Shown: one piece after another, positions 23,636 to 60,468 of the stretch | Position numbering within the stretch: the stretch's first letter is position 1 | Layout of the letters: each line of letters begins with the position of its first letter | NCBI GenBank assembly: GCA_002256025.1 | Contig: NKIB01012282.1 | Coordinates: 1 to 64,000, forward strand | Source: Asterionella formosa | Taxonomy: Eukaryota | DNA: 64,000 nucleotides | Direction of reading: 5' to 3' | Translations under genes and position numbers: made by a program | The notes under the pieces: generated by a model | Told to the model about the DNA's origin: nothing | What the model saw: only the letters and a program-made list of their open reading frames with translations | Database searches by the model: none

Positions 23636-23730
23636 ACCGGTATGTTACCAGTACCGGGAAGTGCCACGGTGAATATACCAGGTCCCGAACCCTATCAGCA
23701 CAATAGTACCAGGTACGGTACCAGGTACCA
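23636..23730. repeat. TACCAGG/GGTACC self-complementary motif cluster upstream of phytochrome
   Basis: GTACCAGGTACGGTACCAGGTACCA at 23706-23730, plus ACCGGT and TACCAGG nearby. Confidence 0.75.
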
Positions 23731-24003
23731 CGACAAAAGTGCTCCGTCATGTACGCCCTTAGAAAATTGTGATATATATATTAAGAAATATGAATAATTA
23801 GTATGTAAAGTCGTCATCACAATTTCTGTCTCAAGCAATTCCACCGATGTTGTCTGTCTACACGTTTTGTCAATACACTTTAGGAACGCAGCCCAGAATC
23901 TTTTCATTTCATGTTCTGGGTTTACAAAAGTATATTTCAAAATCAACTTCGCTTGGTACGAATCGCTTGTTAATCAACCAGAGTACTGCTGTATATTCAT
24001 GCA

Positions 24004-27000
24004 ATGGTGTCTGGTAATCATCAACCAAGCAAATCCGATTTGGAAATTGCGCTCACCGAGTGCGATCGCTTTCCCTTGCATCATATTGATAGCATTCAAG
24101 CAAATTCAGGCCACGTCTTGTATTGGAGGTATCCTTCTGGGACCATTGTCGCAGCGGACGCACTCATTCACCAGGTGATTTGGATCCGAAAGCATGGCAG
24201 CGACAAACGGAACGGGAAGGGGGAAAGCGTGGCAGAGACTGCGGTCACGCCGCAACCGCCCTTGTTGTTGGGAGCCTCCTTGAAAGACTGGATCCCGGAG
24301 ATTCTGTACCATGACATCATGGACATTATCACGGGAATGGTGACGGCATGTTCCCAACGAGCCTTTCACTTTGCTACCTTTGATAGTCAAACATTCGCCT
24401 TTTCAATCTCGACCACCTTCTCGAATTATTCCTTGATTGGCATGGAAATTGAGCTTGTCAAGGAAAACGATAATTCCGAGATATTCTTGAATACTCTCGT
24501 GCATCTGGGTCGCATCTTGGAATGCCAGGTAGAGGAAGTGATCCTGAACAGGGCCTGTGACATTCTATTCGCATCACTAGGATGCTATGATCGCGGGATG
24601 GTCTATCGATTCAATGATGACTTATCGGGAGAGGTTATTCACGAAATCAAACATGAACACATTAGGTCCTCCTACAAGGGATTACGTTATCCCAGTTCTG
24701 ACATACCCCTTTCTGCCCGAAAACTCTTTGCGCACAACAGGTTGCGATACATTCATGACACTGATGTAGACAGTATACCCTTGCTGTCAAACAGTGATAC
24801 TCCAATCGACATGACACAGTGTCGCATGCGCGCCGTGGCCAAGCCTCATATTTTATATTTGCGCAATATGGGTGTGGTTTGTTCACTCTCCTTTGCCATT
24901 GTCGTGGACAATGAGCTTTGGGGAATCTTTGTTTTTCATGGATATGGCAAGCCCACCAAGCCTTCACTCCACCAAAGAATTGCTTGCGAAACAATTACAT
25001 CCATAGTTTCCGTTCGCATAGAAACGATAGTGAAGAAAGCCCAAAGTGCGCGAATCATTCAGCTGCGAGAGATACTGATGCGTTTGAAAAACGATCAAAA
25101 TGTCATTCACAACTTGCATGACTGGGGTAGCGAGCTACTTGGAAATCTTGACGCTGATGTACTTGTGGGACACATTCAAGACCCCCTTGAGGGCGAAGGG
25201 GATAATATCGTGCTTGGAGATGCTAGTCTGGCTCCATCCGCAGAGTTCTGGGCAAAAATGACTCTATCCCAAGCTTCTCATGAACTTTGTGTAATGTCAA
25301 CTCGAGTTGAAGTTGAGAAACGAGGGTTGACCAAAGTCGATTGTCCCGCATCTGGTGTCATTTACTTTCGACAGAACCGCATGCACATCATGCTTGGAAG
25401 GGATGTACGCTCCAAGGATGTCGAGTGGGCAGGGGATCCTGATGAACCAAAGTTGCGCATTGGCGGGATTTTGCATCCTCGCCAATCATTCGCTATGTTT
25501 ATGGAGAAAGCCCGTCAGGAATCACGAGCCTGGAATAGACACGACCTCCAAGTCATTTCCATTTTTCGGGACCACATTTGCAATCATTCGCACAAGTGGA
25601 TGATGGAATTGCTGCGGAACAATATCGATGACACCAATCAGAAATACATGCTGGCTATTGAAAGTGCACGAGAAAACTATGCATTCTTTGCACACATGAG
25701 TCATGAGCTACGGACTCCCTTTCATGGCGTGATGGGATGTCTAAACATTTTGAAGGACTCGTTTGATGATTTGTCACAAGAGGAAGTGAAAATTCTTTTG
25801 GAAACAGCACTTACCTCGGGTCACCATATGATCAATTTGCTGAATGAAATTTTGAATATTTCCAAGAATACACATTTATCGCATACTTGTTCAAATGATT
25901 CAGTTATTTACCAGACCTTAGCATTTGAAGCGATCTACGGAATGAAGACATTTGCTATGTCACAAAAAATTCCACTGACCTGCAAGATTTCCCCCAAGAA
26001 TAAAAAGATTATTATACAAACTGACCGTACAAAAGTTATCCAGATCGTGTCCAACACTGTAAATAATTCCCTCAAATTTACTGGTAATGGAGGAGTCCAC
26101 GTGCAATTTTCCCTTGTGAATACGCTTCACACAGCAATGGAGGAATGCGAAAAAGTGGTATGCAACTATTCTGGAGTTGTTTACATCTTGAAAGAGGGTG
26201 AATTATTCACTTCAATTGACATGGCGCGGACACACATCAATAGCATGCCAAATATTCTCAATCAGAAATGGATGTGCATATGTGTATCTGACACGGGATG
26301 TGGTATAGCGCCAACAGAACTGGTCAATATTTTCGAGAAATACATGCACACCAGTGCTGGGAGTAATCGGAATTGTCAAGGAACAGGTCTAGGTCTATAT
26401 ATATGCGTGTCGTTGTGCCAGCAACTCGATGGGTTCATTGTCTGTGCCAGTACACCGGGTGCTGGGACAGTCGTCTACATTAGTATCCCTGTTCAGATTG
26501 GAGACGAGACGATTCCTATTGAGCTTGACGATGTTGAAACGTCATCACTTGATGCTGGTGCAGATGATGTTATTTTCATGCGAGGACCCATCATGGTTGT
26601 TGATGACAATAGAGTAAATGTTCGAATCCTTCATCGAGCATTGCAAATTTCCCTCAAAGCTGCAAATATCAATCTTGATGTGCTGACAGCCGAAGGAGGC
26701 GATGCTGCCATTGCTCTCTACAAGGACACCCATCCTTCACTTTGTATCATTGACTACCACATGCCTGAGACCGATGGGATTGCGGCCACTGCTGCCATTC
26801 GAGCCTATGAGGAGGCACAAGGCCTTGACGCATCACGCATATTGTGTTATACAGCTGATGTATGCGATCAATCGAAACAGCTGTTACTAAAGTCTGGTTT
26901 TGATGATGTCATCTCCAAACCACCAGGCAAGGGATTCATTTCTGAACTGGTGGGCCGAATGCATGTGGTTGGAAATAAGGAGGAAAGTATCACAATCAAG

Positions 27001-27033: not shown

Positions 27034-27476
27034 CATGACTACCGGTACTTATCAACGACGTATGTGCATCCAGAAAACACTTTTGAAAAATTGGCACAGT
27101 AGACAATTACTTTTGAGATCCTTGACGTTTCGCTCTCTACAGCTCTCATTGCCAACCCAACTCTAGTCCCGACAAAAGAAATGGAGCCAATCAAGCTGTG
27201 GGGCTACGAGTGCTCTCCTTTTGTACAACTAGTACGAGATATTTGTATTTTGTGCATACACCACGTAATAATAAACTCTGCATGAGGATCTATTCACAGG
27301 GACCGGATGGTGGCCAAAAAAGTCCGCTTTCAAGTAAGCCCCTAACACTGTCATCGCCATGTTTGAAGAGCCTTAGAATATTGATTATTATAAAAAGTTA
27401 TACACACTTGTCGCCTATTACTCGAAATAGCCGAAAAGTACCTACCGGTAATATGTTTCAATCCGTTGCAACCTAT

Positions 27477-29093: not shown

Positions 29094-29583
29094 TTTCGCG
29101 TGATGATTGTTGATTACTATTGTGACGATGATGATAAATTTTATCATGATCATCACAAATGTACCGACGATGATGAATGAAAGATTGATAAGATACGGTA
29201 CATACTATTTATAACCCAGTATAATATTATGGAGTCCGTCTAAATGTACAATACTTTTTGAGTGAGTATATATTAATACACGAATATAAATAATTCTCTC
29301 TCTATAAATGACAGCTAATATAATCTATGCCATTAAAAGATTATTTCGAGTTCGCACAAAAGTAAATCTATGAAATCATGAAGAAAAAACTCCATCATGA
29401 TCCAACACATTCACACACAAAATCCATGCTTGTCCATTATCGTATCGTTCCTCGTCACACTCCCTCTCTCTCCATCTCCTTTCGGTTGTTCTATCATCCT
29501 GTCTAGAGAGCCAGTCCACAATATAGGTAACTGTAACAAACACAAGACTCCAGAACGCAAAGCGATTTATTGTTTGGATCATC

Positions 29584-30186: not shown

Positions 30187-30447
30187 ACAAGGTACACATA
30201 CCCGGTACAGAAGTTGTGTTCTTTTGGAGCATTTGGTGAATGGTCGATCCGAATCTACAATTCTTCTAGTCCTTTTATGATTTATTTAGTGATCCATTTC
30301 CGACTTGATGAAAATATTATTGGTGACACCATGGGAGAGAGCTGCTATAGAAGATACAATAGAAAATGGGTATATACCGGTATGTACTGGTAGTTGATTT
30401 AGTAGTATGTAAAAGCTGTTTAACTAAACTTTTTTTTCTTAAATCAT

Positions 30448-31100
30448 TTATAACTTGTTTCTTAACTTCATCAGTTCTAATTCTAGTTTGTCTGCCTCAA
30501 GCTGAGCTTTCTTCGTTTCTCTACATGATTCCATGACTTGTAATTCCTCCTCGGCAGCAATAGTATCTTCATCCATAAGTAATACCGATAATCGTATTGT
30601 TCGAATCAATTCCAACAAATGAGATGATGCCACACATAGATTTTCCACGGCTAGTTGGGCCTGTAGCTCATGCAAAACAGCATCAGCAGCAAGAGGGGGT
30701 GGGGGTTGTTGAACCAACATCATGGCTCCTCCTCCCGCTGAATATATATATATATATATAGTATGATATTTAACATGGTACAGTATGAAAAATATAATGT
30801 GATTCATCCAAAAATGGTGTAGTCGTAGCATATCATGCAAGAGGGAATTATAGAATGAATGAGTACTTTTGTTGCATATCTATACTCGGGGTGGTTGTCA
30901 CGGCAACACCACAAGACATCATTTCACTCACATCGCGGGTCCTTTTTCCCAGATTGCTTGCCGTTCATTTCTTCAATCAATGGAGTTGATGCGGCCGACT
31001 GCAGTAGATTAAGATATTGGGTTGATAATCGATTGCAAGTTGCATTCAATGATGCCTGCCATTCCTCGGCTGGAGTCTTGTCAGCTTCAACTCGGTCCAT
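30448..31100 (-). CDS. MED22: Mediator complex subunit 22-like protein
   Basis: Exon 1 31100-30932, intron 30931-30738 (GTGAGT...TTCAG), exon 2 to the stop at 30448. Helical pattern LSTQYLNLLQSA...ENLCVASSHLLELIRTIRLSVLLMD. Confidence 0.7.
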
Positions 31101-31739
31101 GATCAACAATGAATAATAACGAAGATGACAATCAAATTGCCTGCACATGTGTTATTTGATGATGCTATGTGAAGCTGATGCTGACAATGTTGAGCGCAAT
31201 TATTTTAGATTGAACCCCCCCGGTAAATAGTAGTGCTCGGCACACACATCAGATAGCGGGGAGGCTGGCTCCCTGGGGTACCAGGTACCAGGGTACGTCG
31301 GTTTAAAAAATTATGAGATGACAACAATATCGGTATAGTCCTACTATACATACACTATGAATAATTTGGATGTGGATGAACTACCGGTTTCTGAAGAATA
31401 TGTGGCTGAGTTGCATCAAATCCAGGCATGTTTATACATCCATAATTCACTTCGCAATAAGTAATCATTCATTTAACATTTTGAACTGTTTTCAACCCAC
31501 ATCATAGATATCGGTATGGCAGATTGATTGTGTAGGGGAATTCGCACTGCTTTTTAAACTATGCATCATAAATAATAAATGTGCAAAAATAATATTCTTC
31601 TGTGAACTTATTAATTTGTTAAGTACTAGAAGTTCAGCACATATAAAGCAATCATTTCTATCGCAGATTAAAACTTCAAAGCCTACTATTTCTAGATTTG
31701 TCTACATTGCGCTCCATTGCCCAGAAAAACAGGGCAGTG

Positions 31740-35958: not shown

Positions 35959-36096
35959 TTTAAGAGGGCCACATTGAGTCTCCATGATGTTTGGAACACA
36001 TGAAGTTAGGCATTGTGAAATAGCATCATGGACCCGATGCAGAAATTTCCTTCGTCATTACTGTCAATTGGTAATGCCGAACATGCTCCGCTGGGG

Positions 36097-38109
36097 TCAC
36101 CTTAATCCATTACCGAGTTTCTCTTGTTCCGTCAACGCCTTGACCATACACATGATTACAGCCAGATTGTGCTGCGTGTAGTCGATCTTTGTAAGTTGCC
36201 GATCGTAAATACTCTTTTGAAACGCTCCCAGTATTCGAAAAGGATTCTTCAAAAACATAGCTTGTTCCGGCCTGACCTGAGCTTGAAGCGTGTAGCGAAC
36301 TGCCAGCGACACTGCATTGAAAATTAATTCCTGGTCCGCTATTCTTCCTTGTTCTACAGCCAGGTCGTAGATTGCGCATAGACCTTCCGCCATAACCGCA
36401 GTCGTTTTCACAGATGGATCATCATAAAATATACCAAACTTGTCTCGGTCTTCATCCTCGACAACCCTATCGCCATATTGATAATTCCTTGCGATTTTAG
36501 CTCCCCGCATAGCAAATTCGACCATGCCTTCATTAATATGCCACAATCTCATCTCAGCAATTGAGTACATCATCCACCTGTCATTGATCAAACTTTCATC
36601 ATCAACATTTTCTTCGTTGGCCACCACAAATTCAACTGCTCTAACGGCAACGTCTGACCACGCAGGATCGCTTTTTAAGCCCATTCGTTTCACTGTGTTA
36701 TGGAGTTTCGAGAGGGCGAACGCAGCCTGGCCTGCTCCAGAGGAAAGGTTCAGTTCTTCGTCCAAATCATAATTGTCAATTTGTTGCCTTTGAACTAAGG
36801 AACCATCATGTCGCTGTGCCCCAACGATCCACTGGGCCAAGCCCGTTGACGTGGTGAGATGTGTTGGATCATGTGCTGCATCCATAAATTCGGCAAGCGC
36901 CAATAGTAAAAGTGAATTCATGCCCAATAGAGTAAATTTGGTACCATCCTCAGTTGTGTCTACCACGCATTTTCCTAAATTGTTAGTATCGTAGGGAAGG
37001 GGGCAATCTTCCGTTTGCGCGAGTAGCCATTCAAGTGATTTAACAGTTGCACTGAGTAATGCAGGGTCCTTCCATGTTCGATAACTCGTTGCCATCGAAA
37101 AGGAAGCTGCGGCTTGGCTTAATAAACTGTAACGGCCAAGTTCATTATCTGATCGTGGCTTGTATTGGTATGTCATTTTCCCTGATTCAGTCACAGATCG
37201 AGACAAGAACTTGGCAGCTTCCTTCGCAGCTTCAGTTAAGGTATTTGAATCAAGTGAAGAGAACAACCGATGCCCGTGGTGAAGGGGTAAAGCTTGAGGC
37301 AAATATGCAGACAAGTCGCAAAAGACAGCTTTCGTCTGGAAAAAGTCAATTTGTATTTGTGTGGTTTCAATGTCGTCGACAATCTGTTGGTTGCTTCTCA
37401 CGTCAGGCCATCCCTTGAGGTTCCTTTCTTGTGCGAGTTTGATTAAATGATCCCAGCGGAGGTTCTCTCCAGAATCCATCAAAGCCCGAGCGAACACCTC
37501 GTCAGGAAGAAAAGCCCACCCCTTATCCCAGTCCAACCCAATTCCATACCACCACTCCGACAATTCAGGTTTTTGTTCCACATAGTCAAACGCTTCTTTG
37601 TGAGCAATGCCAACAACAACGTCCACTTTCACCCAATCGTACAAGTGCGCTTCTCTAGGCAATTTTGCAGCCGCTTTGCTGAGAGCAATTCTGGGGCTTG
37701 CTTTCGACTTTCCCATGGCAATATGGGTACATCCCATTTCCTCGCTACCTCTCGAGAAGAAGACAATGTACTCGTTGTTACGTGTTCTCGGGGTGTTGTC
37801 AATTAACTCCTTGACGCCTTGAATGTGCAGTACCGACGACGGACTCTTCCCTCCATACAAGCACACGAGGAGCAGCGAGACCGAGATCACAGCGACCAGC
37901 CATGCGAGCATAGCTTGGTTTTGTCTAATATATGTGGACGCCTCCGAGTCAGGAATAGTTTCACTCGTCGCTGGATCCATCTCAGTGTCATGGTCGTCCG
38001 ATTCTGACGATGAATCAGAATTGTCCTTCGCTCCTGGAAGCAGCGGCGGTAGCAGCTGAACTGGCTCACGACGCTTCGGAACTTTCGACACGAAGGTTCG
38101 CCGTCTCAT
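36097..38109 (-). CDS. Type II membrane protein with a bacterial-like alpha/alpha-toroid domain, function unknown
   Basis: Intact intronless ORF from MRRRTF with one TM helix (AMLAWLVAVISVSLLLVCLY). Motifs WVKVDVV, AFLPDEV, GKMTYQY, LGMNSLLLLAL, GAFQKS...KIDYTQHN. Confidence 0.75.
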   Translation of the reverse strand: MRRRTFVSKVPKRREPVQLLPPLLPGAKDNSDSSSESDDHDTEMDPATSETIPDSEASTYIRQNQAMLAWLVAVISVSLLLVCLYGGKSPSSVLHIQGVKELIDNTPRTRNNEYIVFFSRGSEEMGCTHIAMGKSKASPRIALSKAAAKLPREAHLYDWVKVDVVVGIAHKEAFDYVEQKPELSEWWYGIGLDWDKGWAFLPDEVFARALMDSGENLRWDHLIKLAQERNLKGWPDVRSNQQIVDDIETTQIQIDFFQTKAVFCDLSAYLPQALPLHHGHRLFSSLDSNTLTEAAKEAAKFLSRSVTESGKMTYQYKPRSDNELGRYSLLSQAAASFSMATSYRTWKDPALLSATVKSLEWLLAQTEDCPLPYDTNNLGKCVVDTTEDGTKFTLLGMNSLLLLALAEFMDAAHDPTHLTTSTGLAQWIVGAQRHDGSLVQRQQIDNYDLDEELNLSSGAGQAAFALSKLHNTVKRMGLKSDPAWSDVAVRAVEFVVANEENVDDESLINDRWMMYSIAEMRLWHINEGMVEFAMRGAKIARNYQYGDRVVEDEDRDKFGIFYDDPSVKTTAVMAEGLCAIYDLAVEQGRIADQELIFNAVSLAVRYTLQAQVRPEQAMFLKNPFRILGAFQKSIYDRQLTKIDYTQHNLAVIMCMVKALTEQEKLGNGLR

Positions 38110-38320
38110 GATGGACGCTCCTCTGCATTCAACGCCAAGGAGACATGGAACGTGGTGAGCGACGCAAGCATTGCATCTTCCGTTCAGTTGCACGGATGCA
38201 CTAAATGCAATGATAAATTATTTTTGGCGTCGTAGGAAATGTATGTTTCTTCTACCCTCCAACCCTGTTTGGTCTAGACGTCTATGTATAATAAGTACTG
38301 GTAAATGCAAACAGACAGAC

Positions 38321-38490
38321 AGTACCTGGTACCTGGTACCTGGCACGTAGGAGTCCGTACGGTTTACGATTGTTACCAGGTACCGGTACCAGGTCCCTAA
38401 CATACCGGTAGTTAGGTAGTACCAGTAGCTTGTAAGTAGCATACCAATATGAATGATGGCACCTGGTACCAGGTACAGGTCGTACCTGCA
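38321..38490. repeat. (GGTACC[A/T])n self-complementary heptamer array
   Basis: AGTACCTGGTACCTGGTACCTGG at 38321, TACCAGGTACCGGTACCAGG near 38374 and ACCTGGTACCAGGTAC at 38461. Confidence 0.85.
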
Positions 38491-41400
38491 AGTTGCGGTA
38501 ATTTGCTGAAAAACTAAATATTTAGCTATCTTTATCCGAGATTAAAACCGCAACTTGCTTGTAGTCTGTCTGTCTTGTCCTTCTAAATTTCTAAACCTGT
38601 CGTAATGTCACGAAATCTAGCCCAAAGGAGTCCCTGACTGCATTTTTGCTCTGCTAAATACTACGAACGTACCCGAAAATAAATCAACTCTCAGCGCAAC
38701 CTTTTATGGCCATACATATAGTCGTAGCTGTGTACTGCACTGGTAGTTAACTAGCCCCTTCGACAAAGCTCGCGATGTACATATACCGGGTACTTGTCAC
38801 ATTCTATGAGCGAGCGGGTCGTCAACATAGATGGTAAGGCCCCGTCTTTGCGATGCCCGAATTACGAAGATTGAGTCGCCCGGATACCTAATGGGTGTTT
38901 ACTCTTCGTATTTTCGTCCCTGAACGGCTACATAACTCGCATTTTCCCCCCGAGTACGAGAATTACCGGTAATCTTCGTTCGACCGAATATTTCTTGGGT
39001 CATCCCCGATTTTGACCCATCTTTTTTATTTTCTTGAAGAATCTTCGTTTCCCGAAGATTGATCGGGCAAACGAAGATTGTCTCCACCAATCAGAATAGC
39101 GGTAACAATATATAATCGTCATCACATTGACTGATGATATACCGGTAGTACCGGTAGTCGATACTTCTATTATTATTTTTATTTTTATTATTGTCTTTAT
39201 TATTGGATATTATTAATAAAATTATCCTTACATTCAATATTTTTATTATGATAATAATAATAATTTGTAACATGACGACTCTGCTAACACTATTTCTAAA
39301 TAACTGTGGGAAGTCCACCTATTTCAAAGCTTGGGAGATTTTTCACTCAGGTAGCTATGACATCCATTGCATCTTTGCGTTTCGATTTTTTGTTGGGGGC
39401 ATGGAGATTTTCTCAATCATAGAAACTTAATAATACTGTAATTGTTTCTTGCTTCATGATGCAACCATGGATAGGAAACCCTTTATGATTCATGGATGGT
39501 AAAATATCTGCTTGATGCAAGCTGAGCAACAATCCACATAACCCTACCCAATCATTCTGATACCCAAAAAATACTTGACAAATCTTCACACTTGCCAACA
39601 AGGCAGCAGCACACATGATAGAGGGCTCACAAGTAACATACATTACACAGTGCATCGAATACTCAACAGTGAACAATTTGCCACATCCCCAACCATATGT
39701 TCTTGAAACTACAGTATTTGCATCCCCCACCAACTGTGCCAAGTATTGTTGTGTCTCGCAAATGTGCAGAAAAGTGTGGGCAGAACCAACAGATCATCTC
39801 CATTCTCGCACCCAGATTAAATAGAACACACCACCACACCACAGCCGACAGCACCTATATATAATCTAATACACATCCCAGCTATCATTGAAGAGAAGAA
39901 ACTCACCATTGTTTGCCCACTGATTTGCGCACCACTGACCTCGAAAGCAAGCTCAACTGGCCAAGGAGAGACAACAAAGATGTGAATAAGTAGCTAGTGC
40001 CACTGACACACTGCTGGCTGTATTTCTCAATTTCCGCTGTATACTACTAAGTACATCATGAATATCATACAACTGTGATAAAAACAATAGAGTTATGGTC
40101 TAGTAAATATAAATGAAAATATAAAAAATCAGTTTCTTCTGCCCAACCATTATCGCAACCAATTTAATTATCAATTCAATATTAGCTGTAGGCTAGAATA
40201 AACTCAAAATTCATCTCGTTTCACATAAAATTTCCGTAGAGTAGCATAATACAATGTGGCTACGATGTAGTAGGTACAATAAGAGCAGCCAGTCAAATGA
40301 ATAATCCATTTGATAAAAATATATAAATATTCACTACTTTTGAGGAGCATAGTGCCTCTAACAAACTTTTCTTCTTTGATCAGCAAGTACCTCAGGTGCA
40401 AGCTAGAGCCGCCGCTGTCGCATACATATTGCTGTGGGGAGCGTTGTGGCTGCTGATCTGGAGGGGATGGAAGATTGGCTTGGTCATTATCATTCCCAAA
40501 CTTCTCAATGCTACTAGCTACTATGCTGACCATGTTAAGACCATGAGCTGACAGTAAGAAGAACTTCAGGTCTTGTTGAACGCTCACAAATATATGCAGC
40601 TCTTGCTTGCCTTAAGAGAAAATAAGTTGCCTGGTGCAGAAAAGATCATTGCTCAAAAAAATTCTGGTGTAGTATTGTGTGACCCTGTTGGAATCTCCAT
40701 GTACTATGGTGCTTGTTCCATCATTCGAAAAATTGATCTTCACTCTAATTTCAGTCTATCCCCCAGAGCTTCTTGTCAGGGGTAAGTAACCGTGGATCAA
40801 GAAGGCGAAACGGTCTCACAATGCCTGGTTGTTCATTAACGATAGACTTCAGCCCTTGCTGTCCTGGCGGAGAATCTTTTCAGGAACCTGCAAACCCCTC
40901 CTTGGTGGGATCTGCAAAGAATTTCCATCGTAGCAATACAAAGAATAATCTAACCCTTCTGTTGACAAGCTTGTTGGTGTTCTTGTTCAAGGAGTGGTCG
41001 AGGCAGCTGACCAGCCCTTTATTCCACCTTCTTGTTGAAAGCTGTTAACAAAGCATCTGTTCAAGTTATTTGTGAGTTTCTTTCAACCAATTGTTTAAAA
41101 ATCGATGGTCATGACACCACCACAAATGTCATGCTCTTCAATTTCTTGAAATACGGAAACTTTGACTTTCTTTGTCTGATTCATCATCACATGTTACCTG
41201 AGTGACTTTTAGAGTAATCTCACTCAATTTCAGTGAGTGATCAAAATGACGATTACACTGCCTTCCCTTGGGCTTCCAGGGCGTTGTATAAGATCAGTTT
41301 ATTGTGCGTGTGCACATTGGGTGGAATCAATGTCCCTCCTGCCAAAAGAATATATATAATATAATGGTTCCACAGGTGTATCACCAGGCGACTAGTGGTG

Positions 41401-49432: not shown

Positions 49433-52388
49433 TTAAAATGATAATACAATTATATCAAGCGTTGTATTGGTTTTCATAATTTGTCAGAATCGATTCTAAT
49501 GCACAAAATATGCATCATAATTATTGCAACAGCTTCTATTTAAAATTAGGGTCAATGATTGTGCAATAAAATTCATCAGCCATTTCTAATTGAATCATAA
49601 ACTGACCATACAATATTTATAAATTTCTCAACAATGTTTCTTTTCAATATCATAAGCCTTTGTGTTATATTTGAATTTCCCATGATCATCGGATATTAAT
49701 AATAGCTTCAAGAAGTCAACATATAATTTGCTCAATTTTATCCTATTATGCCTATTTTTTCTCGTTTATCTATCTTAACATGATCGTAATTCTAATCAAA
49801 GTCACTGTTTAAAGTAGCTAAGTAGAAATGGTTTGTAATCTAACTGCTTCATTTACCAATTTCTACTTTGCTAGTCGCAATACAAGTTTCCCTGTTCTTG
49901 TCATGTCATGGCTTGCTCCTGTCTCGCCCCTTTCTTCTTCTATTCTGAGCCTTGTGTCAGTCAGTGCTTGATATCTCGTCCCCTTATTAACTCCAACTCT
50001 GAATTCTTTGGTTTTTTCCTATGTAGTCATTCTAGCAGTGGAAAGGAATTGATCGTTGGTAATGTTATACTTAACATGATCAGAACAAGAGCAAGTACCA
50101 TTCTATCTTTGCTTACCAGAAATCGAAGTAACTGATGCATATTTCTGTAAAATCATGTGTCATTTGAATAATGAATAAGTAATCATCAAAAGTTACATCC
50201 AATGATGTCGCCTATAGATGACAAGTACTTTTTGTTTACCACTGTTACCTTGAAGGAAGCAACAAGCATGTGTTGCTTGGTTATACTCTAACACCAGTTG
50301 TAAATGGATCCATTATGAGAACACTTATCAATTTTCTTATGTTCACATTGGTCGTTCCCAGCAGGCGAAATGAGGTTTTGAACACTTGAGGAGAAAGCAA
50401 TCACTTTGTCTTTATCAACCCAACAATCGGTCATCCTGACCTTTTTTGTTTGCATACCTTAGCTAGATTGCTGGCGAGTCGCCATCCGGTAGTAGTACTA
50501 ATTTTTTCTTGGTCTAGTGTAAGGGAACTTTCACCACTATATTAATGGATCCCCCTCAATTAGCTAAAATCAGTCAAATTCAGTCATGGCAGGCAGTGTA
50601 CTACATTGGGCTGGGGACCGAGGTCAATGAACTAAAAGATCCATATAGACAAAATACGTCGTAACTAGCTAGTACAACTGGGATTTCAAGTGCCCAACGA
50701 CTTCAAAACCATAGCATAGAATAGGTGGTTATGATCACTCTGACCAGAAAGCAGCCCAAATTTTGGAAGGTTCAGGAAAATTGCACTTCTTTCCTGACAT
50801 TTCTTGAAAGTCATAAGTATTTTCTGAAAATTGTAGCTACTAGTCATATGCTGTTCGCTGGTTTTTGCCATTGGAAGAATCTAGCTTTTTTTCGCTGAAC
50901 CGTGCTATGAATTGAAGACATTCTCTACATAATACGACTTAAAGCACCTGTCCAGTGACACGTTGTCCATTTCAGGAATTTCACTGACTTGCTGGTATAC
51001 ACGACATCAGAATGATACGAGGAGGACGCCGAAGTTATATTGCTTGCTTGTAAACATGTATTTGTTCGATGAATGTAAACATTTTGTCTATTCATGCATG
51101 ATTATATTTATATATAAATGTCAAAAGTCTATCATACTAGCTATGATAGCAGGCTTGGGCTACTGTGACTACAATACATAGTATGTGGTACTCTGAGATT
51201 GATTCCAGCTGTTAAATTCTTCTGCAGTGCGTCTGACTGCAATACAAGCTCAGTGCACAAAAACCTTCTGTGGTGAGGATTGCTTAGTTGATAAGCACAC
51301 CTTCATAGGTGTCGGGATTGATACATGCATTCTCCACCTGTCTTTATTTTTCATGTAGTCCCTAGGGTTCCAGGGGTGTGGCTAATGAATTAAAAAGACA
51401 GTTTCCCATTATACTGCTGTATTGACACTTAAAAACCAGTACAGATCCCCATGCACCACCAGCACCCGAAGTCACTAAGTTTTTTGGGATGACCCTGTTT
51501 GGTAGCTAATTACATAAGTTCATTAACATCAGGGCTGGCAGCGCCATGAAGCGCTATGCAGTTGTCTACCCACCCTTCTAGCAAATGATCTGTCTTAAAG
51601 TGCTTAATATATGTAAAGTTGCTTAATTTCCAAAACCTTCTGTTCTTTGCCCAGCTTATTGCGAGCTTATTTGATCTATGTTGTAATCTTTCATATGAAA
51701 AATAACTAAGGCTCTCTTGCCAAATTTGTTTATATATATTCATTGTTCACTTAGACATTCACTCTCAACTGACAACTCAACTCCACTTAGCTACTAGTAG
51801 AAGAATCATGAATATCCAATGTTATCTGCATTGCATAGATATACCTTGCCTTCATTGAAATATTGATTATTGAGAACATTCTCCATTCTTTTGTTTGCTG
51901 GTATAGTGCTTGGCAAGAAATGCTGTTCAAATTCTCACAGCATTTCAAGAAGGGATTTTGGCTGGAGTACTGGTATTACCGGTATTCAAGATTGATTAGT
52001 TCGACTGAACTAATATGCATCCAGTTCTTGTGTATGGTAAATCTTGACATCGATCCGCCACATCATACTATGTGATCATGACGCGAGGAAGAACCAAAAT
52101 AATACGGAACACACACGACCCCATGCACCCTCAAGCACACGACAAATAATCAGGATCTGTAATACAATTGACTGTAAATCACATACCAGGGTACCGTGGT
52201 ACCTTTCATTCCAAAATAGTTTATGAGCCACTCGTATATCCTTCGCCCTCGCAATCCTTTCCTACGCTTCCTTTGTTGCTCGACCCGAAGAGCGAAGAGC
52301 GACAACCATTGAGCACCCGAAAGTCCATTCGTCAAAGCGATGCATGAAGCCAACGTAACGTGGAGAACTAGACCATTACAAATCTGCA

Positions 52389-53393
52389 ATGTCGGCACTT
52401 TTCTCCCTGCGCTTTCGTCAGGGCTTACAGGGTATACAATCGGAATTGGCCTTCGAATCTTGGCATGAATACCCTCAATTCAATTCGAATCAAGGATTGG
52501 GTCGAGTGGCCCTGTTGGCTTTCCTCTTGGGTCTCACCCTAGGCATTCATTTCGTCATGATGATCATGCTGATGCTGGTTCGTTTCTACGGCAATTCAAA
52601 TAGTGTGTTCCCTGGAATAGACTTCCTTGGTACAGACCGACTGCAGTTGTTGATACAATGGTGTCTCTATGTGGTGTTAGTATGTTCCTTCCATTTGTTG
52701 GAATTCTTTACGACAGCCATCTACAATCCCAACGTGGCTACGGCAGATGGCTTCCTCGTTAATCATTCTCCGGCCTACACAGCCGCGGCCTTGGTAAGTT
52801 AATAGGAAAACGACAGCTGCTTGCTCTGTACAGAATTCTCACACATACCGGAATCGGTTTTATTTCTAGCTTGCCTCTACTGAATTCATACTCAAGTTTA
52901 TACTTTGGCCCTCTCTTCGTTCGGATGCTTTTCTCGGGGTTGGCATCATCGTGGTAGTTGCGGCACAATGTATTCGCTCCGTGGCAATGAAAACATGTGG
53001 CGAGTCATTTAATCATTTGATCCAAACGGCGAAGAAGGAAAATCATTTACTAGTCAAACATGGAATGTAAGTTTGGTGATGGTGATTTGTGTCATTGCTG
53101 GCGGCGGTGCCCTCAACTGTTGTTCCCCATGGTGCAGCTACAAATACATACGACACCCATCGTATGTCGGATTTTTCTACTGGGCTGTCGGAACCCAACT
53201 TGTACTGAACAATTACGTGAATATTGTTGTATTTGCCATTGCCGTCTGGTGGTTTTTCAGGGTTCGAATACCTTACGAGGAAGAATCTCTGTTGCTTCAT
53301 TTTGGAGACGAATATATGACGTATGCCAAGACAACTTATATTTGTATTCCCTTTATTCAATCTTCAATCAATGGTAAAGTCAAGAATAGATAG
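52389..53393 (+). CDS. ICMT: Protein-S-isoprenylcysteine O-methyltransferase
   Basis: Introns 52794-52869 and 53067-53137 give FHLLEF..TA..NP...FLVNHS..Y, FNHLIQ...HLLVKHGIYKYIRHPSYVG and RIPYEEESL...FG.EY..Y. Confidence 0.92.
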
Positions 53394-53797
53394 ACAAGAG
53401 GTACTCAGAGCTGTGATGAAGAAAGAAATCTCGAATTTTCTACCGCATGTTTAACTCGAGCAAAGGGACGAACTATGGACCGCATGGCGCCAGAATGGGC
53501 ATGACAAATGAGTTGCTCAGTACGACAACGTCGATCTCTCTCTCTCTTTTGCCCCATCGGTGATTCGATGAAGGTATGGCCTAAGGAAGTTGTCTACCGG
53601 TATGCTGCGAATCAAGAAATAGGAATTGCACTCTTAACTTAAATCATTGTGTTAAATTGTTGGTACAATGCTACCCTACCTCGAACTTAGAAGAATCCAG
53701 TTGCATATCCTCACATTTTTGTCTTTCTTGCTCTTAATTGGACACTTTCCGTTCAGTCTATATAAACATCCAACTCTAGCTACCCGAAAACGTCATC

Positions 53798-55043
53798 TTA
53801 GCTGTTCTTGCCCTTGTCATCCGACAAGGCGTTTTCAATGTACGCAATCCACCTTTGAAAATTCCAAAAGATGTTGCCCACCTCCCCAGAATTCGTTCTC
53901 ATAGCTGGCTCCAACATTTTCAATCGGTTCAGTTCCTCTTCGAAAGGAATTCGACGAAAGGGCTCCTCGGGTTCACCAGAGGATGCTCTCGCCAAGGACT
54001 CCGTAAAATCCATTTCGTAGCTCTGCTCCAAATGAAATCTCATGTTGTCTAGTTCGTCTTCTTTGGCAATCACGTCTCTCAGTAAGCGCATCGTTACTTG
54101 TGGGGATGGCCTTCCGAAGAAAACATGATGCCGAGAGGGAACCCAAACGAACGAAAAGTGATCCTCAAACATAATGAATTGTCCTTCCACAAAATTTGTA
54201 CCGGTAAAGCCAGTCGCGGCAATATGCCCTTGACCTGGATAGCGTTCAAGTTTCTTGAGTCCCCACTTTGCTGCAGATTCGTTGGTGAGTTCAATAGGTG
54301 CCATGCTAGCTCTTGAATTGGCGGGAGGAGCGAGATTGGCTTCGAAGGTGACTTGATGCCGAGACACGTGTTTGTCTCCAGTAGCTTTAGTGGCAATGAG
54401 CGTATCTCCTTTGTAGGTGACATTGACAAGTTCGTAGCCATTATCACCGTAGCTTTCGTATGCAGTATTTTGGGTAGCAAAAATCAGTCAGCATCAACAG
54501 AAACAGTTGCATCTCAATATGACGTACTCACTTTCCGACCCAAAGGCCTTCGAGATTAAATCTCGGAATACAAGATCTGGCAGCCCTGGCCTCGTCTTTC
54601 CACTCATCGATCATCGTATCTTTTCCCTCGAAATATTCTGCCTTGAAAACAGTGTCTATCTTGTTTAATGCCTTACTGTAGACAAAGTCAGGATCTCTGG
54701 ATTCCTTTTGTTCAATTGCTTTTTCTAAATCTAGGACTCGACTTTCATCACCCATTGCCTGAGCCCACTTAAGATTTTCTTTAAAGGTGGCGACGTCTGA
54801 GCGCAGCTTCGCTAAGTCTTCACCTCTCACAAATCTTTGCTTTGATTGTTCTTCATGTTGCAAGCGCTTTGCACGAATGTCCGAGGGAATGCTGTCGCCA
54901 AAGAAAAATCCATCAATGTCTGAATTGTAAAGTAAAAATAAGCGTTTAGAAGCAAATCGAGACGGCTGAAATGCATTCACCGAGGAGTTGAAGGGCAACA
55001 ACAAAAGCAGCGACGACCACATCGTTGCTCTCTTCGTTGACAT
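53798..55043 (-). CDS. DUF3506 (EXECUTER C-terminal / cyclin-D1-binding-like) domain protein, probably plastid-targeted
   Basis: Signal peptide ending VNA-F. Intron 54531-54453 gives LEGLWVGNYGDNGYELVNVTY.GDTLIATKATGDKHV, followed by YPGQGHIAATGF...FVEGQ. An alternative start lies at 55022. Confidence 0.75.
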
Positions 55044-55239
55044 GAACTGCCAACGTTCCAACAAGTGCCCAATCATAGGCAATTCAAATAAATATGATGA
55101 TATATATAGATTTTCAATTGATTGTTGTAGAGAATTCTCAGAATTTCCTGTCATCACATATTGTTAGAACCAATGAGAATATCGCTGACATAATTCAATT
55201 TTGATTTGTTCGCTATTGTTAGCCATGTCCATAGCTATA

Positions 55240-55690
55240 TACCGGTACCAGGTACCTGGTACCTTGTACCGGGTATATCTTTTCCTTCTGCGGTGTGTTG
55301 CCTCCCTTTCTGCTCGAGTCCTAGACCTACCATTCCTGGTACCAGGTACCTGGTACCTGGTACCGGCATCATCTGACCTGTTCTTCTTTCCGCCCAAGAT
55401 AACATTTCCAGACGAGCGTACGACAGGCGGCGTATACAGATGGCAGAAAGCAAGAAGGAGGCGGATGGATTCTCTTGCTTGCTGAATGCTGGCTATTGTA
55501 CAAATGTACGCATCAATATCTATATAATTATGTACGTGTGTTTTTTTAATTTATGTCCATATGGGGGTACCAGGTACCGGTACTGGTACTGTCAAAATAC
55601 ATCCCGGTAATCCAAAATCCCGGGTGGTCGTAAAATATACTTGTATATGGAAAAATAATGCATACAGTAGGTACCATACCTGGTACATAG
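55240..55690. promoter_or_regulatory. Dense (GGTACC[A/T])n arrays in the divergent DUF3506/HSP90 intergenic region
   Basis: Clusters at 55240-55276, 55335-55366, 55566-55590 and 55669-55686. A regulatory role is inferred from position only. Confidence 0.55.
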
Positions 55691-55905
55691 GAATTGCAAC
55701 GAGGTATTCCTTCTAGGCATGTATTTTACATGTATATCATGCCTAAAGCAAATCATGGATTTCGATCGAGACAACCACGAAATAGAGGAGTTCCATCGAA
55801 GGTCAGACTACCGGCAACCCTGCTCCAAGAAATCCCGCCAAACAAAAGTTGGGCTCATAAATATCGTGAGAAGGACGATTGAATCTGAAACCACCAACTA
55901 TCAAC

Positions 55906-58401
55906 ATGGTGAGTGCGTTGGTCGTTGCGGATCTACATGGGCGGAAACGATGTGAGATCTTCAAAAGGAAAATGGCTGGGAAAGAAGGACCTGAACAAAG
56001 CAATGGACCGCATCGTCACTTTCTGTCATTTTTGAGTTGGATATTTTTAGTTTTCCATTGATTTCCATTTGCATCATCCACATTATGTCGCTCACCTAAA
56101 GCTCACGTTCCGTCCTCACTGCCACAGTCTGCCCCTGATGCTGAAAGCTACGCCTTTTCCGCTGATATCAATCAGCTCCTTTCGTTGAGTAAGTACTAAC
56201 CTTTCTCCTCAATGGGAATGCTTGTGAGCTGGTCATTCTCGGCTTCTCCCCCACTCCCGAACGTATGTAGGAATCAATACTATCAAATTGTGGGTCTTCT
56301 CACGCATTCGTCCTTTTCGAATCCTTTTTACTTTGCAGTCATCAACACCTTTTACTCCAACAAGGAGATTTTCCTTCGAGAGCTGATTTCCAACTCGAGT
56401 GATGCCCTTGATAAGATCCGTTACCAGTCTTTGACGGACTCTTCGGTCCTCGATTCCGAACCCGAACTTCAGATCAAGCTCATCGCCGACAAGGCCAACA
56501 ACACCCTCACCATTGAAGATTCTGGTATCGGAATGACCAAGGCTGACCTCATTAACAACCTCGGAACCATTGCCAAATCCGGAACCAAGCAATTCATGGA
56601 AGCCCTCACTGCGGGTGCCGATATCTCCATGATTGGACAATTTGGTGTTGGTTTCTACTCGGCCTATTTGGTGGCTGACAAGGTCGAAGTCACGTCGAAG
56701 AACAATGATGACGAATGCTGGACATGGACCTCAGAAGCTGGAGGCTCTTTCACTGTCACGAAGTCTGAAGAGACGTTGATTAATCGTGGTACCAGAATCG
56801 TCCTTCACCTCAAGGAGGACATGAGCGAATACCTCGAAGAAAAGCGTGTTAAGGATCTTGTCAAGAAACACTCTGAGTTTATTGGATTCCCAATCAAGCT
56901 TTATACCGAAAAGACAACGGAGAAGGAAGTCACTGACGATGAAGACGAGGACGACGACGAAGATGATGACGAGAAACCAAAGGTTGAAGAAGTTGACGAC
57001 GAGGAAGAGGCCAAGAAGGAAAAGAAGACGAAAAAGATTAAGGAAGTTTCGCATGAATGGAAGCACCTCAATAACACCAAGCCCATTTGGATGCGTAAGC
57101 CTGATGATGTCACCCACGACGAATATGTTGCATTCTACAAGTCAATCTCCAATGACTGGGAAGATTATGCTGCTGTCAAGCATTTTTCGGTTGAGGGTCA
57201 GCTTGAATTCCGCGCAATTCTCTTTTGCCCAAAGCGTGCTCCGTTTGACCAGTTCGAGGGGGGAGCCAAGAAGAAGTTTAATCATATTAAGCTCTACGTC
57301 CGTCGTGTGTTCATCATGGATAACTGTGAGGACTTGATGCCAGAGTGGCTCCAATTCATCAAGGGTGTTGTCGATTCCGAGGATCTTCCACTCAATATTT
57401 CTCGTGAAACACTCCAGCAGAACAAGATTCTTCGCGTGATCAAGAAGAACCTTGTCAAGAAGTGTATCGAGATGTTCAGTGATCTCACTGAAAACGAAGA
57501 TGGCTACAAGAAGTTTTACGAGTCTTTCTCCAAGAATCTCAAACTAGGTGTTCACGAGGACTCGACCAACCGTGCCAAGATTGCCAAGCTCTTGCGATAC
57601 CATTCTACCAAGAGTGGCGACGAGATGACTTCCCTTGACGACTACGTTGGCCGTATGGACGACAAACAACCAGGTATTTATTATATTACTGGAGAGTCCA
57701 AGCGTGCCGTTGAAACTTCACCTTTCCTTGAAAAACTCAAGAAAAGAGGGTATGAAGTACTTTACATGGTTGACCCTATTGATGAGTACTGTGTCCAGCA
57801 ACTCAAGGAGTTTGAGGGTAAGAAGCTCCTTAGTGCCACCAAGGAGGGACTTGATTTGGCCGAGGACGAAGATGAAAAGAAGGCTTTTGAAGAAGCTAAG
57901 AAGAAGTCAGAGGGCCTCTGTAAGCTCATCAAAGAAGTTCTTGACGAGAAGGTTGAGAAGGTCGTCGTTTCGAACCGCCTTGCTGATTCCCCTTGCTGTC
58001 TCGTCACTGGAGAGTTTGGATGGTCGGCGAATATGGAACGTATCATGAAAGCGCAGGCTCTTCGGGATGCTTCGCAATCCGCTTACATGAGCTCGAAGAA
58101 GACCATGGAGATCAACCCCACAAATGCCATCATCATTGCTCTCCGTGACAAGGCTGATGCCGATCAGTCTGACAAGACTGTGAAGGATTTGATTTGGCTA
58201 CTCTATGAGACTTCTTTGCTTACTAGTGGATTCTCTCTAGACGAGCCTGCTACCTTTGCGGCCCGTATCCACCGCCTTGTGAAGCTAGGTCTCTCAATTG
58301 ATGACGATGGTGATGAGGAAGTAATGGAAGAAGACTTGGATGATCTCCCTCCTCTCGACGGTGATGACAATGAAGAAAGCGCCATGGAACAGGTTGATTA
58401 A
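55906..58401 (+). CDS. HSP90: Cytosolic heat shock protein 90
   Basis: Coding exon 1 is the ATG alone (55906-55908); intron 55909-56127; exon 56128-56188 ([20 protein letters not shown]); intron 56189-56338. Motifs [43 protein letters not shown] and C-terminal MEQVD. Confidence 0.97.
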
Positions 58402-58497
58402 GAAATCCATAATTCTCGCCTAACTCATTAGATATAAAGAAGGTTGAATTGCATCATTAGACTGTACTAAGTATTCACCTGATACAATGAATCCGCT

Positions 58498-58808
58498 GCG
58501 AAGCGGTTGCTTACATGGCAGATATTGTTGTTGTTTTGGAAATACATGTTATGATAGTACACCATGAAATTAATGACGAGACCACCATCGAGCAGGATAC
58601 CGAAACAACTGACTGTATTTCTCAGCTTCAGACTACCGGTAATCCAAGAATTTGCTGTGTAGCGAAGCGGTTGCTTACATGGCAGATATTGTTGTAATAT
58701 TGGAAAGCATGTTGTGATAATTAACCATAAATTTAAATGGCGAGACCACCATCGACCAGGATACCAAAACACGACCAACTGTATTCTCAGCTTCAGACTA
58801 CCGGTAAT
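58498..58808. repeat. Diverged tandem duplication (period ~164 bp) between convergent genes
   Basis: GCGAAGCGGTTGCTTACATGGCAGATATTGTTG at 58498 and 58662. Both copies end in CTCAGCTTCAGACTACCGGTAAT. Confidence 0.92.
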
Positions 58809-58869
58809 ATGATGATCAGATTCGTCCATTTAATTGTTAACAAATAAGTTTGACCAAATTGAAATATGA

Positions 58870-60060
58870 TTAAACCTCTGAAATCGGTTTAGATTTCTTC
58901 TTGTTCCTCTTTTCCCCAGACGCTAGCTGCGTATCCGATGAATCATCACCGAAATCAAAATGTTTGACCGTTTTTTTAATTTTTTTTCGTCGAAATAATC
59001 CAAATTTTCGCTTGGAATGAGTACTCTCAGTCAAGTCACCGCAATCGAGATCAGAACAAAGCCCATCGCCTTGATCTATTTTCTGCTCACGATATTTTGC
59101 AAATTTGGCATCCCAACTGTAAATTACTCCTGTCCCTGATATTAAATCATGCATCTCGCGTCTATCCTGTCGAACGACACCGAGTAATACACCAAATATA
59201 CCCCAAACACTAATTGGCAAAAACATGGTCCGCAACGCGGCACGCCAGGTTGTGACCGATGTCCCATCTTCAAAATTTATAACTTTTAGGCCAATGATAG
59301 TCTTGCCAATGGTTCGCCCTGTCGCTGCCAATGCCGATGTGTAATAGACAAAACTCCACAAAACGAAGACAGAAAAAATGAGCCATGGAAGCTCGTTCAA
59401 TTGATATGTTCCATAAGCATTTCTCAACACAATGTCGACTGCCTGTTGAATGAAAAATACCACCACCGCAAATGTTGTCGTAACAATAAGTTGATCAATC
59501 AAAAAAGCAAGGCCACGAGATATTGTTCCAGAGTATCGACCTTGAACAGCGATCGCAATGCTTGAGGCCCCTTTTGGTAGTTTATGCTGCCTGTCCTCAG
59601 GAAGGCCAGGTGCTTGTGGAATTCCAGGCTTGCGAAACGTCCCGACTCCTTGAATGGCTTGATCCACAACTACTAGTTGTGACCGCATCCCATCCATCAA
59701 AGGCGATATTATGCCTGCCGTGCTTCTCGCAACAATAGCACCAATTTCGGCGCGCTCTGCAAGCTCATTCATATTCACATTCTGCAACAAGGCATTGATG
59801 TCTACTTTTTGAAGTAGCTTGTTGATGTCCACCTTCATGAGTACCTTGTTGATGTCCACCTTTTCAATCAACGCGTTCATGTCGATCTTGGCAACCAAGG
59901 CATCTACGTCGATGCGCTGGACAATTCCATCGACATCAACATATTCAACAATACCAGACGTGACTGGACCAAGTGCATACCCGAACGCTTTGGACATCGT
60001 GGAGGTTGTTCTCGGCTCTACGGAAGGCGGAGAGTCATCATTCCTTTCTGTCCTTCCCAT
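58870..60060 (-). CDS. RDD-family membrane protein with N-terminal (V/I)DxxxLxxK nonamer repeats
   Basis: SRGLAFLID (R and D), GRTIGKTIIGLKV, RAALR and RREMHDLISGT (D). Repeats VDVDGIVQR-IDVDALVAK-IDMNALIEK-VDINKVLMK-VDINKLLQK-VDINALLQN. Confidence 0.88.
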   Translation of the reverse strand: MGRTERNDDSPPSVEPRTTSTMSKAFGYALGPVTSGIVEYVDVDGIVQRIDVDALVAKIDMNALIEKVDINKVLMKVDINKLLQKVDINALLQNVNMNELAERAEIGAIVARSTAGIISPLMDGMRSQLVVVDQAIQGVGTFRKPGIPQAPGLPEDRQHKLPKGASSIAIAVQGRYSGTISRGLAFLIDQLIVTTTFAVVVFFIQQAVDIVLRNAYGTYQLNELPWLIFSVFVLWSFVYYTSALAATGRTIGKTIIGLKVINFEDGTSVTTWRAALRTMFLPISVWGIFGVLLGVVRQDRREMHDLISGTGVIYSWDAKFAKYREQKIDQGDGLCSDLDCGDLTESTHSKRKFGLFRRKKIKKTVKHFDFGDDSSDTQLASGEKRNKKKSKPISEV

Positions 60061-60332
60061 GTTCTTAGACTGGACAGAATTGATAAATATTGTGCGTCAG
60101 GTAGAATGTTATAAGCAACGAGAATCATTCTAGAGTTCTTGCAATAGTGTCAACCCATGTTCAAGCGATGCAACAAGTATACCGTATACTGGAATCAGAT
60201 TCGCTCCTCCCGCAAAATTTTCCTGGAACAAAAGGTTTTGAATAAGACGGTTTATACTATGAAGAAAACGAAATAACCTTTTTCACGATCATTTCAGGAC
60301 CTTTGTCCCAGAGACACCCACCGCCGTCGCTA

Positions 60333-60468
60333 TACCAGGGTACCTGGTACCTGGTACCAGTATTTGTCCTGTCGTGTATGGAGTACCAGCTAAAAACTGT
60401 TAGCCACCGTTATTTTACTCCATCTTCGGACTATCAATATTGAAGAACCTGGTACCTGGTACATGGTA
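60333..60468. repeat. (GGTACC[A/T])n array upstream of the RDD gene
   Basis: TACCAGGGTACCTGGTACCTGGTACCAG at 60333-60360 and ACCTGGTACCTGGTACATGGTA at 60447-60468. Confidence 0.85.

Follow-up and report, generated by a model that had tools for sequence, protein, structure and literature searches.

TA-framed CC..GG arrays upstream of Asterionella formosa genes as probable excision footprints of cut-and-paste transposons

The stretch of DNA analyzed here (the window) comprises 64,000 nucleotides of Asterionella formosa, positions 1 to 64,000 of contig NKIB01012282.1 (assembly GCA_002256025.1). Short arrays of a word built around GGTACC lie upstream of several of its genes. Judged by sequence comparisons, these arrays are probably (roughly 85%) excision footprints, stacked one beside another, that were left by TA-targeting cut-and-paste transposons of the IS630-Tc1-mariner type.

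The window locus and its repeated words

Genes in the window alternate with CpG-poor blocks (~39–52 kb and 60.5–64 kb). Pfam supports phytochrome, Med22 (weak), Cyclin_D1_bind, HSP90 and RDD on the window open reading frames; Cyclin_D1_bind is presumably the equivalent of DUF3506. The labels "toroid gene" and "ICMT", given previously to two other genes, have no Pfam match behind them among the open reading frames tested. The closest named relatives of the phytochrome are diatom proteins (43%–49% identity), and the sequencing runs that contain the window region are mostly from lake and freshwater samples.

Start codons are located at 14736 (an open reading frame of 1024 amino acids), 24004 (phytochrome), 52389 (an open reading frame) and 60060 (RDD). 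The likely MED22 ATG, read by eye, is at 31100, and that of HSP90 is near 55905, ahead of an intron (55907–56127) seen in RNA contigs. An earlier note on this DNA had listed clusters of a GGTACC heptamer upstream of gene starts; every one of these is present, and the distances to the starts agree with the ATGs located here.

The units, named by the letters between their TA dinucleotides, and related features are listed below (strand is given where one applies; + is the forward strand).

14630–14641: TA-CCGG-TA and a partial second unit, ~100 bp before the 1024-aa open reading frame (motif match)
22045–22142, +: degenerate copy of a ~98-bp MITE (miniature transposable element with inverted repeats) with CCWG ends (element comparison)
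23635–23654: TA-CCGG-TA and TA-CCAG-TA, upstream of phytochrome (motif match)
23706–23730: two TA-CCAGG-TA, ~270 bp before the phytochrome ATG (motif match, shuffles)
27040–27450: two lone TA-CCGG-TA (27040, 27443) in the convergent phytochrome/GST spacer; without CCWGG
30199–30392: CCCGG, CCGG and CTGG units in the convergent ABA4-like/MED22 spacer; without CCWGG; TACCGGTA at 30375
31272–31296: CCAGG and CCAGGG array, ~170 bp before the likely MED22 ATG (31100)
38296–38475: cluster of CTGG, CCTGG, CCAGG, CCGG and CCAG, upstream of a 670-aa open reading frame (36097–38109, minus strand)
38485–38561, +: shortened TA-flanked MITE with CCWG ends, left end intact and right end decayed; adjoins the array
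38659–38796, +: truncated copy of a young dispersed repeat, with an empty site (single TA, 38752–38753) and a CCGGG unit at 38784
38964–39156: three TA-CCGG-TA units (38964, 39140, 39149); single TA in the C51 paralog
51968–51984: CTGG and CCGG units at the border of a CpG-poor block
52184–52203: CCAGGG and CCGTGG units, ~190 bp before ATG 52389
55240–55275: array of CCGG, CCAGG, CCTGG, CCTTG and CCGGG in the divergent spacer before HSP90
55335–55366: array of mixed-orientation CCWGG units (motif match, shuffles)
55566–55686: array of CCAGG, CCGG and CTGG with a further CCTGG, 220–340 bp before the HSP90 ATG (~55905)
58634–58806: convergent HSP90/RDD spacer, with one TA-CCGG-TA in either copy of a 164-bp tandem duplication; TACCGGTA at 58634 and 58799
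60333–60468: arrays of CCAGGG, CCTGG, CCTGG and CCAG (60333–60362) and of CCTGG (60447–60468), 270–400 bp before the RDD ATG
62198–62206: lone TA-CCAGG-TA in a CpG-poor block, away from called starts

The 13-mer GGTACCWGGTACC has 11 matches in the window, against a maximum of 0 across 100 dinucleotide shuffles, and the window also holds 18 TACCWGGTA (W is A or T) and 21 TACCGGTA words. Genome-wide counts are based on the whole assembly (68.4 Mb over 15,436 contigs). They are 9,910 for GGTACCWGGTACC (5 for the reversed word as control), 26,886 for TACCWGGTA (control 902) and 28,528 for TACCGGTA (control 1,718). A 13-mer with C or G in the middle, GGTACCSGGTACC, is found only 157 times.

The heptamer GGTACCA/GGTACCT had been taken as the unit. 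The real unit is a TA-framed word, either TA+CCWGG+TA or TA+CCGG+TA. Its composition was analyzed in a 424-kb sample of the genome, which also serves for the positional statistics; ten extra contigs in the sample were chosen among those listing GGTACCWGGTACC. The sample holds 190 copies of TA-CCGG-TA (56 times expectation), 141 of TA-CCWGG-TA (36 times) and 119 of TA-CCAG/CTGG-TA (7 times), with TA-CCAGGG-TA (23) and TA-CCSGG-TA (18) as minor units. CCWGG and CCGG overall are enriched only 1.2 and 1.4 times. A reading of the two as methylase sites was dropped because the enrichment resides in the TA-framed words.

One-mismatch variants of TACCWGGTA, counted over all 8 fixed positions, number 200. 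Array dimers are perfect palindromes or direct repeats, and neighboring W bases within arrays are the same in 25 cases and opposite in 25. It should be noted that nested elements in L046 and L049, one of them with a hAT-like remnant as judged by eye, have CAGTATACTGGTA-type repeats and contribute TACTGGTA words that are not scars.

Empty and filled sites and the resident elements

When paralogous repeats are aligned, some sites are a single TA in one paralog but TA+CCGG+TA in the next. Both states are represented in the window: its empty site at 38752 is filled with TA-CCGG-TA in the C67 paralog, with identical flanks, and its filled sites at 38964, 39140 and 39149 correspond to a single TA in the C51 paralog. 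TA is thus duplicated relative to the empty allele, as in an IS630-Tc1-mariner footprint. The young repeat of 38659–38796 was aligned in 30 copies, with 142 substitutions in 16,751 aligned bases. Six of its seven distinct indels of at least 6 bp are unit insertions at TA, each present in a minority of copies. One GG-TA-CC site in this repeat has CCTGG in 8 of 24 copies, CCGG in one and CCAGGG in one.

In an indel table from 205 sequences of the same genome, where non-TA rows may be counted more than once, TACCGG at TA makes up 27 of the 102 six-bp rows, at 25 distinct sites. TACCWGG makes up 5 of the 85 seven-bp rows. Two of these five are clean de novo insertions with no unit nearby, and both end in TA-T or TA-G, not TA-C; the other three comprise a case with a mutated empty allele, a case of possible slippage and a case next to an inverted unit. 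Two-unit insertions of 13 bp and 14 bp at bare TA sites are also present. An earlier, stricter pass over overlapping and not independent data gave 47 indels, 16 of them TA-duplicating.

As a separate observation, TA-GC-TA is enriched 2.6 times, and 5 of 9 TA-duplicating 5-bp indels are TA+G-N-C (L343/C57, L193/L188, L003/C57, C75/L341, L338/L321). These are possibly scars of another TA-targeting family with G..C ends.

Could the units have multiplied with no transposon, by microsatellite-like slippage and template switching at short palindromes? The dimer structure, one compatible CCGG site, one compatible CCTGG row, and the position of the commonest 7-bp insert beside its own inverted copy all speak for such a process. 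Yet 24 of the 25 distinct TACCGG sites are incompatible with it, most having no CCGG nearby. New units are not copies of the adjacent unit, since a new T unit stands beside an A unit and neighbors are evenly same and opposite. Slippage also leaves unexplained why growth is confined to CC..GG, why TA is duplicated and why the units match element ends. It is therefore very improbable as the origin of the units, but it may extend arrays secondarily.

A TA-anchored inverted-repeat search yielded several families beginning with CC. One is a ~98-bp non-coding, TA-flanked MITE, which together with relatives of ~1.4 kb forms a non-autonomous family; its end has 655 exact matches (control 0). Among 15 complete copies with intact ends, 11 are CCT..TGG, 4 are CCA..AGG and none is symmetric. 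The overlap of the two ends is exactly CCTGG or CCAGG, according to orientation. It is this element, and not the arrays, that has the properties of a MITE, i.e. short length, no coding sequence, terminal inverted repeats (TIRs), target duplication and high copy number. The MITE end also has 42 single matches in viral contigs, which were taken as chance. In L096 and L098 the MITE lies just downstream of a retroelement integrase frame, so some copies may spread as passengers.

The second class has a source with a transposase. Full-length pogo elements of the form TA-CCG..CGG-TA encode a DDE_1 frame, and their ends overlap to CCGG. L177 is such an element of 2,464 bp (DDE_1 E-value = 1e-21). The DDE_1 frame has D35D spacing by our own count. 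Copies L080–L088 are >99.5% identical with open DDE_1 frames, and recent or current pogo activity is therefore likely. The 11-letter pogo end shows no excess in number (146 matches, control 117), and only its loci were used. L177 also displays a second stop-free frame of 145 aa (L177:1848–2285) on the strand opposite to the transposase. In both the CCWGG and the CCGG class, then, the inserted bases equal the terminal bases of resident elements.

More TA-flanked TIR families beginning with CC were found at C51:34454–35351, C57:19617–20366 and C67:764–5314, and in L184 and L189. Their ends are CCAG, CCAC or CCGC, or else CCGT in a second pogo family; CC ends occur unusually often in this genome.

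The flanks point to the same elements. Outside the MITE ends (n = 58) the favored bases at positions −1 to −4 are G (0.74), G (0.59), T (0.47) and C (0.47), and outside TACCWGGTA (n = 282) the same bases have frequencies of 0.80, 0.67, 0.41 and 0.57. At the pogo ends (n = 33) the favored outer bases are G (0.39), A (0.36) and A (0.45), and the same bases outside TACCGGTA (n = 380) have 0.33, 0.37 and 0.37. The background for all TA is G 0.26 at −1. Footprint flanks thus match element insertion flanks in both classes, a match that is partly circular inside arrays. MITE ends lie directly after a unit in 20 of 42 cases, against 799 of 20,065 non-coding TA (4%), and after GG in 25 of 42, against 7% of the same TA set. 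Complete MITE copies sit in G-TA-C in 11 of 15 cases and in GG-TA-CC in 5 of 15. From the flanks of the two families one would predict that de novo CCWGG inserts follow GG and that CCGG inserts mostly do not; this is what is seen (5 of 5 inserts and 3 of 25 sites, respectively).

The G outside the TA allows a different parse, in which the arrays are still footprints, with GTAC as the duplicated target and CWG as the element ends, so that the transposase need not be TA-targeting. The 7-bp insert is identical under both parses at GTAC sites, 43 of 58 MITE ends come after G, and the 11 complete copies in G-TA-C fit as well. This parse is nonetheless very unlikely to be correct: at 15 of the 58 ends the G is missing from an otherwise intact TAC context (TACC was a requirement of the search), 4 of the 15 complete copies lie outside GTAC, and neither clean de novo scar ends in TA-C.

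Alignable flanks of a single MITE family had been named as an observation that would speak against a promoter or boundary element. For nine window arrays, flanks of 100 bp show no alignment except at overlaps or at the shared motif, since the arrays appear to be what the MITE leaves behind and not the MITE body. A reading of the arrays as decayed MITE bodies or termini from a single family is accordingly refuted for the window arrays and extremely improbable in general, although MITE copies do adjoin arrays (38485–38561); the units contain only the outermost 2–4 bases of the ends.

The excision-footprint reading can be set out as a series of steps. An element inserts at a TA and duplicates it; the alleles seen are the single TA, TA-element-TA and TA+end bases+TA. 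A CCTGG scar would come from a MITE with CCT..TGG ends and a CCAGG scar from the opposite element orientation, so that the mixed W is explained by scar orientation following element orientation. Pogo CCG..CGG ends would leave CCGG scars. Staggered cuts may leave short overhangs that pair as T:A or CTG:CAG, or as CG:CG, with end repair joining them; the unequal MITE ends would pair without a mismatch. A scar at GGTACC would be GGTACCWGGTACC, which would contain two new targets. Because the MITE prefers GG-TA-CC, each scar would rebuild its target, and arrays of mixed orientation would grow. Repeated visits would yield chains of random W, in line with the even split between neighbors.

Several points weigh against this reading. 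Clean de novo single CCWGG insertions number only two. The window CCWGG arrays have no empty paralog among the sequences sampled, and filled/empty polymorphism was not seen in contigs from other lakes, with 0 gaps over 51990–55350, 55337–58527 and 58666–60348 (12 rows were viewed of an indel table dominated by repeats, which holds 81 further rows). By these two results the window CCWGG arrays are old or fixed. No autonomous CCWG-ended element was found among the ~40 of 93 DDE_1 matches whose ends were examined in this fragmented assembly; it follows that the TA duplication is the single basis for assigning the CCWG family to a superfamily. Long CCWG-ended copies have no transposase frame by eye, and the same is true of a 4.5-kb CC-ended element on C67. 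Searches of the same genome gave no match for DDE_3 and none for Transposase_1, whose control was also silent. Other TA-flanked CCA-ended families may add to the CCWGG class, the flank match is in part circular inside arrays, and the positional sample of the MITE (13 ends) is small. Finally, the reading calls for very many scars, ~26,000 in each class.

Position of the units relative to genes

Gene calls in the 424-kb sample were made with our own simple coding model, so the starts are rough. Divergent spacers (77.8 kb) hold 29 copies of GGTACCWGGTACC and convergent spacers (41.8 kb) a single one, and the 147 kb of coding sequence has none; an equal density in convergent spacers, which would have argued against a 5′ mark, is not observed. 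The enrichment is a broad rise 100–600 bp upstream of called starts. TACCWGGTA forms 82 clusters: 42 have a 5′ end no more than 700 bp away, 8 have a 3′ end at such a distance, and the remaining 32 are remote from genes (p = 5e-5). The bias of 136 TACCGGTA clusters is weaker (60 near 5′ ends, 23 near 3′ ends, 49 far and 4 coding). For intact MITEs, 13 ends divide into 6 near 5′ ends, 1 near a 3′ end and 6 far.

The earlier note saw a general mark on functionally unrelated genes, and with its 5′ bias this description holds. The proposal that arrays precede many starts is borne out as a bias, but a CCWGG unit is present within 700 bp of only 37 of 89 called starts, and GGTACCWGGTACC of 21 of 89. 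The ACCGGT word said to be interleaved is indeed present in the arrays, but TACCGGTA is a separate word that also occurs in convergent spacers (61 in divergent vs 21 in convergent spacers of the sample). The earlier note had not noticed multi-unit arrays in coding regions or transposon bodies; this stands for GGTACCWGGTACC in coding DNA, but other parts of the genome do have repeat bodies that contain multi-unit arrays. At 54199–54206 a called coding segment includes one TACCGGTA; a 6-bp scar keeps the reading frame, and this is set against the lack of any 7-bp unit in the 147 kb of coding sequence.

Non-coding windows that are poor in CpG contain few units (6 in 120, against 57 in 142). In these windows CCAG/CTGG is more frequent than CCGG, which is what CpG decay would give. 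The 5′ bias may arise because elements insert into the open, unmethylated DNA that lies upstream of genes, because frameshifting 7-bp scars are removed from coding DNA, and because scars decay in CpG-poor blocks. The arrays would then be, for the most part, a neutral trace of past transposon activity. In one run, RNA contigs stop at the array edges 52180 and 55245; these cannot show starts and were not used.

A promoter or boundary element had been proposed for the arrays; on this view the units would be selected sites of a general promoter protein or a nucleosome-excluding protein, multiplied by copying errors. The strong 5′ bias, the absence from coding DNA and the unchanged arrays in other-lake contigs are what such sites would show. 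In addition, the available text of two papers reports TACCGGTA and TACATGTA as Phytophthora infestans promoter motifs (PMC3597505, PMC3520976). Against it, units arise as TA-duplicating insertions in repeats far from any need, and element ends predict both unit sequence and flanks. The sharp position or strand bias expected of a regulatory-factor site is absent: the rise is broad (as measured from rough-model starts), W orientation relative to starts is 48 vs 37, and 52 of 89 called starts have no unit. Moreover, 12 of 14 flanked HSP90 loci of other organisms lack TACCWGGTA (see below), and a term match in the main text of a paper on P. infestans binding specificities (PMC11267843) gave no TACATGTA, GGTAC, GTAC or CCGG. 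Selected protein sites are thus a poor candidate, with little chance of being the right explanation, and a purpose-built promoter or boundary element is not supported as the origin of units that arise as end-sequence insertions at a duplicated TA.

Two further observations concern the window transcripts. The 3′ ends of two convergent genes overlap in RNA contigs at 53620–53631. The 164-bp tandem duplication (58498–58808) lies between the 3′ ends of HSP90 and RDD; one RNA contig skips a copy, which represents either a collapse or a one-copy allele.

Other organisms and known systems

The motif had been thought to be lineage-specific. A metagenome scan with HSP90 gave no close relative (88% protein identity or less), and 14 of 80 loci had flanks and were counted. 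In two of them, L250 and L252, which probably belong to a single organism, TACCWGGTA is present 7 times and the 13-mer once over ~11 kb, among long TAC/TAG repeats; TACCGGTA is missing. TACCWGGTA is absent from the remaining 12 loci. A search of L252 for TIR elements gave none. TACCWGGTA is thus patchy and not unique to this lineage, as expected if the word follows resident elements.

Full-text searches of open-access papers turned up no account of this motif family from diatoms and none of promoter arrays built from footprints. The most over-represented promoter words of a genome can be transposon scars, and motif finders would then misread them as regulatory sites. Comparison of empty and filled paralogs is a simple test that can be applied to similar motifs elsewhere. 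The arrays also imply past cut-and-paste activity far above the counts of surviving elements, and a feedback that produces insertion hotspots beside genes.

The published systems are described here from the available parts of each source. In Tc1/mariner excision, the cut is a few bases inside the element and leaves 3′ overhangs; repair gives TA+end bases+TA, together with minor products (PMC8151067, 10.1101/659086). Sleeping Beauty footprints are heterogeneous (10.1101/659086). Those of Sleeping Beauty and Tc1 (TACAGTA/TACTGTA and TACATGTA, the latter as cited in PMC3520976) share with the Asterionella units the TA+terminal bases+TA structure, the central A/T ambiguity and the minor products (10.1101/659086, PMC8151067), here CCAGGG and CCSGG. 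The Asterionella scars differ in being natural, in numbering tens of thousands of fixed copies and in being stacked in arrays. Their W appears to come from unequal ends and orientation, not from a mismatch between equal ends, and the scar would rebuild a preferred target.

Stowaway MITEs in a beta-amylase intron of the Triticeae display repeated gain and loss at one TA, with heterogeneous footprints, and a new element has inserted beside an old footprint (PMC1925063). That case is a single locus; in Asterionella the footprints are genome-wide, up to four chained units long and 5′-biased, with a GG-TA-CC preference and other termini. Footprints of this grammar and reinsertion beside an old footprint are already known, and what is new here is the scale and the proposed self-renewing target.

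The elements behind the CCGG class have the TA duplication, the short TIRs and the DDE_1 frame of pogo-like elements (PMC7325037). Because no CCWG-ended pogo turned up, pogo is at most a possible driver of the MITE that forms the arrays. The mimp MITEs in Fusarium effector promoters are also a MITE mark in promoters, and their deletion showed no direct role in expression (PMC3599309). In Fusarium the mark on a single gene class is the element itself, whereas in Asterionella scars mark unrelated genes.

The closest parallel in sequence is in Phytophthora, also a stramenopile, where the TAC..GTA palindromes TACATGTA (motif-1/M93) and TACCGGTA (M94) are abundant upstream of genes; M94 is the identical word. 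The authors read these palindromes as protein sites (PMC3597505, PMC3520976), and the footprint idea was set aside in PMC3520976 because of their abundance and conservation. It is a rather doubtful extension that a scar which rebuilds and doubles its own target wrote ~55,000 scars in Asterionella, i.e. self-renewing landing pads that form a heritable map of open chromatin, possibly co-opted by the host as promoter or boundary elements, and that the same process could explain abundant TAC..GTA motifs of other eukaryotes, such as those of Phytophthora.

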